DNA of 64,000 nucleotides from an uncultured Rhodobacterales bacterium (GTDB lineage Bacteria > Pseudomonadota > Alphaproteobacteria > Rhodobacterales > Rhodobacteraceae). This document shows, in pieces, positions 30,601 to 32,331 of the stretch. A model generated the notes under the pieces. It saw only the letters and a list, made by a program, of their open reading frames with translations, was not told the DNA's origin and made no database searches. Each line of letters opens with the position of its first letter. Position 1 is the first letter of the stretch. The DNA lies in contig CAZWDS010000001.1 in assembly GCA_964632495.1 (NCBI GenBank), positions 21,318 to 85,317 of the forward strand. Direction: 5' to 3'. The translations under genes were made by a program, and so were the position numbers.

Positions 30601-32331
30601 CAAGAAATTGAAGCCGACGATGTCCTTGTTGGCGGTGGCGGCGCCGACCGCTTCCAGTTCGAAACTTTGATCAACGGCAAGAAAGATATTCTGGCCGAAC
30701 ACACAATGGATAACGGCATGATCCATTGGCACGGCGTCGCAGGTGAGAACAAGTACATCCACGATCACTGGGTCGATGGGCTTGGTGTCGACGTGGTAGC
30801 GGATTACAACAAAGCCGAAGGCGACACGATCTCGGTCATCGGCCACACCACTCAAATCGAGGTGGACTACCAAACTATCGATACGGATGGCGATGGCATT
30901 GATGACGACGCTGTTTCAGTGATCACCGTTTATTCTCAGCAAGGCAACGGAGGCGGCGCCCACGACGAGGACTATCTGGGCTACATCGTTGTTCATGGTG
31001 ATCGCGTCGAAGAAGAAGACATCGAAACTGACGCCGGTGCACACTATGGCATCGTTGATACCATTCATGACATTCAGGAGGCTGTTGCACCGAACGGCGA
31101 CACCAAGTGGATCGACGCCGACGGAGATGGGGTGGCCGAGCACCTTGGTTACGATACCCGAGATGTAAATGGTGATCCTGTCGGTACCAGCCCTTGGTAT
31201 TATTCGTCCAACGAGTGGTACAACAATGGTGAGATCGATCTGACCAGCACCTTGCCTGAGGGTCTTGAAGCTCCGAACATTCTTTTGGATTATGCGACTG
31301 GAACATTCGGCGGTGCAAATCAACCGGTCGAAATTGTCCACGAGGCTTCGCAAGCAGCTGCAGAAGGCACATGGTCTTTCAGCTTTAATGCCGACAATCC
31401 GGGTAACGGCCAGAACCAGGCGTTGATCTCGAAAGATCATTCCGGCTTGGGTGACGGTGGTCATTTGACTGCGCACATCACGACGAACGGCGCCCTGCTG
31501 GTTCGTTTCCAAGGCGAAGCAGAAGAAAAGAGCTTGGTCAACTGGCAAACCAAAATTCAAGCGAACGAAGACTATCACGTCGCCTTCACTTTCGACGGGG
31601 ACGAAATCGGTCTGTACCTGAACGGCGAATTGCTTGATGCCGACACAGGGTTTGAGGAAGGGATGACCGGAAACGAAGAGAACCTTGTAATCGGCGGCTC
31701 GACACGAACTCGGATGGGCGAAGATGACAATATCGAGTGGCACTTCGATGGCACAATCGAGAACCTGACGCTGCTGGATCGTCCGTTGGAAGAGATCGAA
31801 ATCCTGTTCCTTTCGGAAAACGACGGCAACGTCGACGCACTTGGCGCGCTTTACGGCAACCCGGTCGAGATCGAAGACGACGAGGAAGAAGAAGACAACA
31901 CCGAAGATACGTCGGACGAGACTAACGACGATACTTCGGACGATGACAACGACGACTCTTCGGACGACAACGAAAACTCCGATGACGACGCCGACGATAC
32001 TTCCGATGACGAACAGGAAGAGGAAGAGGAAGAGGAAGAGGAAGAGGAAGAGGAAGAGGAAGAAACAAATGACGACGAGATGTCAAACGATGGAGACGAC
32101 GAATCGGGCATCAGCGCGATTTTCTCGAAAATCATCAATGCTCTTCTGTCGATCTTCGGACTTGGTGGCAGCGATGACGACAACGACACTGCGCCAACCG
32201 AAGAAGAAATCGAAACTACTTTGACCGAGGTAGAGGATCTTTTGAGTGACCTGATGACCACGCCAATCGAAGAAGGCAGCACGATGCAATCCAACCTCGA
32301 CGTCGAAGAAGAAGAGGTCATGATGATTTGA
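27652..32331 (+). CDS. Giant secreted-type protein: PA14-like domain, 2 x (RTX Ca-binding repeats + unassigned domain + LamG/ConA-like domain), polyacidic tail
   Basis: 1559-aa uninterrupted ORF with no signal peptide. GGxGxD nonapeptides ([44 protein letters not shown]; second block [26 protein letters not shown]...). PA14-like [11 protein letters not shown]...[17 protein letters not shown]. LamG-like WVRPDD...EWTHLAVSF...VYLDG. Confidence 0.9.
   Translation: [1559 protein letters not shown]
28348..31806 (+). repeat. Intragenic tandem duplication of a ~600-aa RTX/unassigned/LamG module (aa ~233-860 and ~875-1385)
   Basis: Collinear protein motifs occur twice: [13 protein letters not shown] / [41 protein letters not shown] / [44 protein letters not shown] / [16 protein letters not shown]. 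Confidence 0.85.
32017..32064 (+). repeat. (GAAGAG)n hexanucleotide microsatellite, 7 perfect units plus GAAGAA, encoding 16 consecutive Glu
   Basis: Counted directly in the sequence. It is in frame with the giant ORF (codons GAA GAG alternating). Confidence 0.95.

Follow-up and report, generated by a model that had tools for sequence, protein, structure and literature searches.

The longest open reading frame (ORF) in a window of 64,000 nucleotides from an uncultured Rhodobacterales bacterium (assembly GCA_964632495.1, contig CAZWDS010000001.1, positions 21,318 to 85,317 of the forward strand) encodes a giant protein of 1559 amino acids (aa) with a polyanionic C-terminal tail (residues 1405-1559, which together with the stop codon occupy positions 31864-32331 of the window). 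Comparison with related sequences indicates that this tail is a real, conserved and modular C-terminal cassette that lacks a domain-database model. We lean towards reading it as a variant signal of the type I secretion system (T1SS), one that carries a helix resembling an anchor and in which a polyanionic spacer would take the place of the signal-proximal RTX block. Four observations point in this direction: the passengers consist of extracellular-type domains and are Sec-less, the shared element is found at the extreme C-terminus, in three families a genuine T1SS cassette can stand in place of the tail, and the end of the tail is like that of the class-3 T1SS substrates. The export route and the roles of the helix and of the spacer are what we infer from these observations.

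The proximal part of the tail, the spacer (residues 1405-1484), consists for 92.5% of D, E, N, S and T, with 68% D+E, no K or R and a net charge of -54 over 80 aa; it includes a run of exactly 16 Glu residues (1456-1471). The spacer is followed by what will be referred to as the module (the last ~75 aa): a hydrophobic to amphipathic helix 1 (Eisenberg <H> 0.56-0.63, hydrophobic moment (muH) 0.42-0.46) and then ~53 residues with a net charge of about -19 and without K or R, which hold an acidic amphipathic helix 2 (muH 0.47, <H> 0.08; 25-43 aa from the C-terminal end) and the final residues ...VEEEEVMMI. The complete tail of 155 aa carries a net charge of -72, with a single K and no R. AlphaFold2 (AF2), run on the module alignment, predicted three helices, among which helix 1 was helical at module residues 5-20 (pLDDT 76-82) and helix 2 was the most confident part of the model (pLDDT 85-91). 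The original prediction, made from the window's sequence alone, had described an acidic D/E/N/S/T segment with an E16 run, an amphipathic stretch, a VEEEEVMMI end and a last RTX block ~600 aa upstream, and all of these are present; the last RTX block ends at ~residue 950, with the C-terminus ~610 aa downstream of it. The disorder that it had suggested for the acidic segment is in line with the charge-hydropathy plot, in which the spacer lies far within the disordered zone (mean H 0.20 vs a boundary of 0.66). The Glu run is encoded by an in-frame hexanucleotide repeat, (GAAGAG)8.8, at which slippage could alter the length of the run without a frameshift.

Full-length homologs (>100), which share the length and start of the 1559-aa protein, were found in Silicimonas, Boseongicola, Actibacterium and unnamed Paracoccaceae, and ~70 homologs have the same tail anatomy: acidic spacer, hydrophobic helix, connector, acidic amphipathic helix, acidic stretch and hydrophobic end. 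In nearly all of these ~70, a hydropathy-window method placed the start of helix 1 at 68-77 residues from the C-terminus. The family consensus of helix 1 is sGIGAIFa(K/R)IfxIlxSIFGxGG (F20 ≥ 90% conserved) and that of helix 2 is EE(v)EexLdEvExLLsDL(i/v)P (L49 ≥ 90% conserved), and 3-5 hydrophobic residues form the terminus (MEMMA, MVMMM, ELEVL, DLLEAA). An acidic-then-hydrophobic terminus occurs in 67 of the 70 family members and in 37/55 comparable (type A) tails of Peptidase_M10 proteins, vs 26 of the 2996 long ORFs of the window's own genome (0.87%), which corresponds to a ~100-fold enrichment over the genome background. The spacers of 63 homologs range in length from 22 to 193 aa, in D+E content from 21% to 79% and in net charge from -4 to -101, they are always net negative with a median K+R of 0, and the units repeated in one homolog bear no relation to those in another (EEETPT, DDDTPPA, EETGG, GDGSA), with Pro-rich and Gly/Asp/Ser-rich versions among them. 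The helix and the part downstream of it are thus conserved and keep a constant distance to the C-terminus, whereas the acidic part is free in length and composition, as the original prediction had considered. The median identity to the homologs is 39% for the module vs 66% for the second LamG-like domain; the alignments indicate that the module, though less conserved than LamG, is still clearly under constraint.

This conservation bears on the view that the tail is functionless, i.e. that it arose by expansion of a microsatellite through slippage, together with a chance hydrophobic stretch, on an otherwise ordinary RTX adhesin. The DNA has properties that would fit such an origin, as the spacer is encoded by short tandem repeats, an in-frame (GAAGAG)n microsatellite among them, and one homolog (P0075) reads frameshifted within the repeat tract. 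In P0075 the tail continues as RGAACRG... after an EEEPTEEEP tract encoded by GAA-rich repeat DNA, a shift that may be genuine slippage or an assembly error; spacer DNA is error-prone. Nevertheless, the succession helix-helix-terminus is conserved in one fixed place throughout a clade whose divergence reaches ~57% identity, the module has been transferred to four other passenger families (see below), and the end motif is enriched as described, so that for the module this view is effectively refuted by conservation and, for the tail as a whole, we regard it as highly improbable.

A profile of 74 positions, built from the module (alignment A1, the last ~75 aa), was searched against 1.84 billion representative proteins and yielded 46 matches, in all but one of which the module lies right at the C-terminus; the exception, an odd match in multiple stretches (P0158), is probably spurious. 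Beyond the giant family, fragments of which were matched too, the carriers represent four passenger types: Beta_helix-PKD-LamG proteins (~810-870 aa, no RTX, encoded in exopolysaccharide (EPS)/capsule glycosyltransferase clusters), matrixin-type Peptidase_M10 proteins (~270-340 aa, no RTX), a G8/CEMIP-beta-helix/CHRD protein (1343 aa), and proteins without a clear domain (~320-360 aa, around ~330 aa). On these other passengers the module is always preceded by a low-complexity spacer that is acidic, Pro-rich or Gly/Asp/Ser-rich, and no Sec signal was found at the N-termini that were read. The matches indicate that the module is a modular cassette common to at least five unrelated extracellular protein types, and not the peculiarity of one protein as which the original prediction had presented it. 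No Pfam-A or NCBIfam model touches the module, even at E ≤ 10.

The distribution of the module is narrow. Profile A1 recovered it in 17 members of a sample of 301 genomes from the window's family (16/300 genera) and in none of ~397 genomes of other Alphaproteobacteria, and four genomes contain two module carriers each, on different passengers. The window's own genome encodes a second carrier of the tail, an M10 protease (C10:~17653-18597, ending in ...EDEDDDDVFLL) that was detected by BLAST with the M10 domain; its tail was missed by profile A1, so that the class is wider than the profile and 17/301 is a lower bound. In the M10 version helix 1 is ~28 aa long and fully apolar (Kyte-Doolittle hydropathy (KD) 2.2-2.6), with FGGG in mid-helix and a conserved Arg after it, and the distal part of the tail frequently contains His- or Cys-rich inserts with weak matches to the His-loops of ZnuA/ZrgA, which suggests metal binding in the tail of this protease subfamily. 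In the protease of the window's own genome a long HDHDHD/DEDH-rich insert separates helix and terminus, where its relatives have CGCxGPCxC. Silicimonas algicola possesses the M10 version as well. In one genome (G077:C1, locus L044 8103-10212) a DDE_Tnp_1 transposase (8773-9825, minus strand) lies between a truncated Peptidase_M10 ORF (8103-8666) and an ORF of 113 aa (9871-10212) that comprises the hydrophobic helix and the acidic tail only, i.e. an insertion sequence has split the passenger from the cassette. One carrier, P0296, had been considered as a case of RTX repeats directly before the module; its GxGxD matches turned out to be a (GDGS[AD])n linker, in which Pfam recognizes no RTX.

The original prediction had also proposed that the tail could be a disordered 'sponge' for Ca2+, other metals or mineral surfaces; in a reading built on this proposal, the polyanion would be the payload itself, the helix would be only a tether and the export information would reside elsewhere. 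The extreme charge density of the window's spacer, the persistent net negative charge and the near absence of K and R in the 63 homologs, the metal-binding-looking inserts and His-loop matches of the M10 relatives, and the marine habitat of the organism, with its high Ca2+ and Mg2+, are all compatible with this proposal. A binding site would, however, be expected to be better conserved than a segment that varies so widely in acidity, length and repeat unit and that in some homologs consists mainly of Pro or Gly/Ser; the conservation lies in the helices and the terminus, not in the polyanion; the entire protein is already very acidic (22% D+E); and the same spacer-plus-module is found on proteases and beta-helix proteins without an obvious mineral role. 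A sponge therefore seems improbable to us, and a generic anionic disordered spacer accounts better for the range of compositions.

A further comparison is that with relatives that end differently. Distant homologs of the giant protein (~53-58% identity) do not have the acidic tail and end in extra RTX repeats followed by a canonical ...FDADGxG...LTVDDFxFV, whereas close homologs retain the tail. In a tree of the passenger region the proteins with the acidic tail (type A) form one clade (79 rows, SH-like support 96) amid RTX-ended relatives, and the pattern of tail types on this tree requires one or two switches. The beta-helix family likewise alternates between the acidic tail and RTX with a ...SDFxL end, and the Peptidase_M10 domain occurs with three alternative ends: the acidic tail, 5-8 RTX repeats with ...DFLI/V, and a Sec signal combined with PEP-CTERM. 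The acidic tail thus alternates with RTX plus a canonical T1SS end in three protein families, and the occurrence of the same passengers, in related bacteria, with either of two export ends constitutes a clean natural experiment.

The end of the window protein was then compared with that of the class-3 T1SS substrates (the serralysin-type proteases PrtA/B/C/G and AprA, lipases and HasA), which use an ABC (ATP-binding cassette) transporter of the PrtD/HasD type without N-terminal C39/CLD domain. The protein shares with them the lack of a Sec signal (no Sec/Tat signal could be read from the sequence: the first K/R is at residue 53 and there is no hydrophobic h-region), an amphipathic helix within the last ~50 residues and an acidic and hydrophobic free end after it, as well as a composition that is acidic and Cys-poor, as is typical of T1SS substrates (PMC6891781); the 1559-aa protein has zero Cys and a net charge of -296. 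It differs from them in that RTX repeats do not directly precede the putative signal and in that similarity to canonical T1SS C-terminal domains is absent, although RTX repeats beside the signal are dispensable in this class (PMC8047123, PMC6891781). Further likenesses are that one of the passenger families is Peptidase_M10 and that a PrtD-class ABC gene is present in the genome. Further differences are the extra transmembrane (TM)-like FGxGG helix and the polyanionic spacer in place of an RTX beta-roll, the lack of linkage between module genes and transporter genes at the loci examined, and the conservation of the module, which suffices for a hidden Markov model, whereas classical signals are degenerate and the secretion 'code' of T1SS has been obscure for decades (PMC8870123). 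Since the last ~45 aa show these hallmarks of class-3 signals, the tail most likely contains a signal, and the claim of the original prediction that it stands 'instead of' one is probably wrong.

The machinery that such a signal would require is encoded in the genome. A PrtD-type ABC gene (C21:40522-42237; 635 bits, above the curated cut-off) adjoins genes for a membrane fusion protein (MFP; 357 bits) and a substrate of 1166 aa, and a TolC-type outer-membrane protein is encoded on contig C84 (275 bits). At C12:39473-49163 the same genome has a second T1SS, made up of an MFP gene, a pair of ABC genes (733 aa and 556 aa) and the gene of a large RTX protein that ends in ...IDFTGIDKINF and whose ORF measures 1014 aa, or 1463 aa from an upstream start.

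Several results weigh against a T1SS signal. Compared by hhalign, the module profile and the profile of the canonical ends showed no similarity (probability 0.2%), which upholds the original prediction's statement that the tail differs from the canonical RTX-plus-signal cassette, here the one carried by the distant homologs, and for which reason we regard the acidic tail and RTX plus canonical end as alternative, non-homologous cassettes on the same scaffold. The last 60 aa likewise fail to align with canonical signals, so that neither of the two outcomes named as refuting in the original prediction occurred. The AF2 model contains no confident tertiary fold for the module (pTM 0.34), and the fully apolar, TM-like helix 1 of the M10 proteins is unusual T1SS cargo that could belong to another pathway. 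No T1SS transporter gene and no conserved processing gene was found near the module genes at the window gene and ~15 other loci. The co-occurrence of module and T1SS gives no support either: 283/301 family genomes have a T1SS MFP, as do 15 of the 17 that are module-positive, so that T1SS is near-universal in the family and co-occurrence is uninformative. In one module-positive genome that is 99% complete (G212), a PrtD-type ABC and a T1SS MFP were not detected; this genome encodes at least four other RTX proteins, whereas three family genomes without T1SS have none, which weakens it as a counter-example, and its T1SS is probably unassembled or divergent. The free end is judged here by the rule of Ghigo and Wandersman (1994), who reportedly described protease- and HasA-type signals as ending in D/E plus a few hydrophobic residues, with a free end.

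Some of the same results would fit an alternative in which the cassette is a sorting or anchoring signal for dedicated machinery of an undescribed kind, with helix 1 as TM anchor, the LLSDL(I/V)PxTG-like motif as processing or recognition site and the spacer as stalk, and in which T1SS is not the route, or not the whole route. A modular C-terminal layout with a narrow range is the typical signature of the LPXTG, PEP-CTERM and GlyGly-CTERM sorting systems, and a stalk, a hydrophobic helix and a short motif at the C-termini of unrelated passengers, confined to one family, are what we observe (17/301 vs 0/~397). The hydropathy of the M10 helix 1 over ~28 aa with the conserved Arg behind it, the use of PEP-CTERM as an alternative end in M10 paralogs, the genome without detectable T1SS and the lack of enriched co-occurrence also favour it. 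The tail shares with LPXTG/sortase, PEP-CTERM/exosortase, GlyGly-CTERM/rhombosortase and the VPLPA-CTERM of Rhodobacterales the stalk plus helix, the modular reuse and the narrow range; it differs in that these systems need a Sec signal and run in the order motif, helix, short basic tail. To our knowledge, all sortase-type systems act on Sec-exported proteins, and none of the passengers that were read shows a Sec signal; the order of the elements is reversed, with the helix followed by the motif and ~45 acidic residues; within the window's own subclade the motif lacks a conserved Pro; no candidate processing enzyme adjoins any of the loci examined; and no NCBIfam sorting-domain model matches the module. 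For these reasons (no Sec signal, reversed order, an acidic and not a basic tail, no NCBIfam match) a signal of the known sortase/exosortase type was rejected, and we hold the dedicated machinery to be unlikely. A protein of 208 aa encoded directly beside the PrtD-type T1SS operon (C21:42711-43337, minus strand; L001 3636-4262) ends in ...SEVPLPASGLLLLSIFAVPLARKFRL, which looks like a sorting signal of the VPLPA-CTERM type, and thus the genome would use at least two C-terminal sorting schemes.

Returning to the variant T1SS signal, which we prefer, the elements of the tail could act together as follows. The last ~45 residues (helix 2, acidic stretch and hydrophobic free end) would most likely form an uncleaved T1SS-type signal, the receptor of which is likely to be an ABC/MFP/TolC system of the PrtD class that the genome encodes elsewhere. 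Helix 1 with its FGxGG end may be a second recognition element or, more probably, an element for association with the membrane or the cell surface; we favour the latter because the helix is TM-like in the M10 proteins, and as an anchor it would keep the exported, lectin-like passenger on the cell surface. That this helix serves in retention or export, as the original prediction had put forward, is plausible. The spacer may be a fast-evolving, disordered stalk on which selection would act only for negative charge, lack of basic residues and disorder, and which would also hold the signal at a distance from the folded LamG domain. In the low-Ca2+ cytosol the acidic flanks on both sides would keep helix 1 soluble and off the anionic inner membrane, while outside the cell the Ca2+ and Mg2+ of seawater would neutralise the charge of the spacer, so that the cation would serve as a switch and not be the load of a sponge. 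In T1SS it is the tail that emerges first.

Two other groups of T1SS cargo are instructive. Like HlyA (class-2), the window protein possesses RTX blocks and a C-terminal amphipathic helix 25-50 residues from the end, and in the HlyA signal the amphipathic helix is essential (residues 975-987) (PMC8870123). In T1SS cargo, hydrophobic helices elsewhere in the protein are tolerated. The window protein differs from HlyA in the position of the RTX repeats, which abut the signal in HlyA, and in that no context of an acyltransferase or a CLD-type transporter was seen and no pore-forming domain was identified in it. With the class-4 adhesins LapA and MpIBP it has in common a large size, the lack of a Sec signal, RTX blocks and lectin-type PA14/LamG domains. 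In contrast to LapA, its RTX does not abut the C-terminus and any surface retention would depend on the C-terminal helix and not on an N-terminal plug; retention of the LapA type was rejected, as a search for the LapG-type protease (Peptidase_C93, PF06035) gave no match in the window's own genome.

If the tail is a T1SS signal, it would offer defined residues to mutate and possibly a secretion tag for marine Alphaproteobacteria, and it would imply that a polyanionic disordered spacer can replace the RTX beta-roll adjacent to the signal; should helix 1 be an anchor, it would represent a novel means of holding T1SS cargo on the cell surface. More tentatively, and with less confidence than in the signal itself, we propose that the module might be a new sequence-definable sorting domain that marks a family-specific Rhodobacteraceae secretome of adhesins, proteases and beta-helix proteins active on polysaccharides, be it as the first strongly conserved T1SS signal, with a cation-gated membrane anchor built in, or as the tag of an undescribed export and anchoring pathway. 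The profile in any case allows the annotation of a hidden secretome now labelled 'hypothetical' or 'LamG-like', which comprises adhesins, matrixin-type proteases and beta-helix enzymes of capsule/EPS clusters.

The features of the gene are collected in Table 1. The protein starts with a PA14-like domain (PA14, PF07691, was matched in its homologs), continues with two successive units of RTX, domain X and LamG, and ends in the tail; the Pfam matches in the protein itself are LamG_3 (twice) and HemolysinCabind, corresponding to two LamG-like domains and two RTX blocks. Domain X, of ~200 aa (GEQRxGQL..., GHT...), occurs twice (window 28537-29211 and 30487-31140) and appears to be an unassigned domain, for which Pfam gave no family match apart from a below-threshold match to RTX repeats on the edge of its first copy. 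The protein is probably a Ca2+-dependent surface adhesin.

Table 1. Positions of the gene, of its domains and tail elements, and of the downstream hairpin in the window.
Feature	Position	Strand	Basis
Gene of the giant protein	27652..32331	+	ORF list, translation, Pfam matches
Second (last) RTX GGxGxD block, residues ~878-950	30283..30501	+	Pfam HemolysinCabind 909-944; NCBIfam RTX models 878-950
LamG-like domain 2, residues ~1210-1400, last folded domain before the tail, closes in a conserved motif	31279..31851	+	Pfam Laminin_G_2/3
Polyanionic low-complexity spacer, residues 1405-1484, variable part of the cassette	31864..32103	+	Composition, homolog comparison
In-frame microsatellite (GAAGAG)8.8 coding for the E16 run	32011..32063	+	Tandem Repeats Finder: period 6, 97% matches
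Hydrophobic/amphipathic helix 1, residues 1485-1506, closing in near-invariant (S/A)(I/L)FGxGG	32104..32169	+	Alignments, hydropathy, AF2
Acidic amphipathic helix 2, residues ~1517-1535	32200..32256	+	Alignments, AF2
Distal acidic segment with the C-terminal end (3-4 hydrophobic residues after an acidic run)	32257..32328	+	Motif counts
Intrinsic-terminator-like hairpin, 12 pairs (7 G-C) and T-run, 21 nt past the stop codon	32352..32384	+	Sequence reading

Given the hairpin behind its stop codon, the gene would close its own transcription unit. The genes around it are metabolic or encode a tungstate-type ABC importer, and no secretion gene was found among the adjacent genes. Three contexts are the only ones that recur for module genes at the loci examined: a synteny of ilvD, CMD, the module gene and the tungstate ABC genes, for the beta-helix type clusters of EPS/capsule glycosyltransferase genes, and for the M10 type smpB/greA. 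One beta-helix locus has an ABC exporter nearby, which was considered as a T1SS transporter and discarded, since it scores best as MsbA/HepA/PglK-like. At one beta-helix locus (L014 5130-8877) the Beta_helix-PKD-LamG module gene has capsule/EPS glycosyltransferase genes on one side and, on the other, a gene for a 'spike base protein, RCAP_Rcc01079 family' of 87 aa (NF048002, E=4e-33) and a gene for a He_PIG protein of 1156 aa; this pair looks like the head-spike pair of the Rhodobacter gene-transfer agent (RcGTA), located beside a capsule locus.

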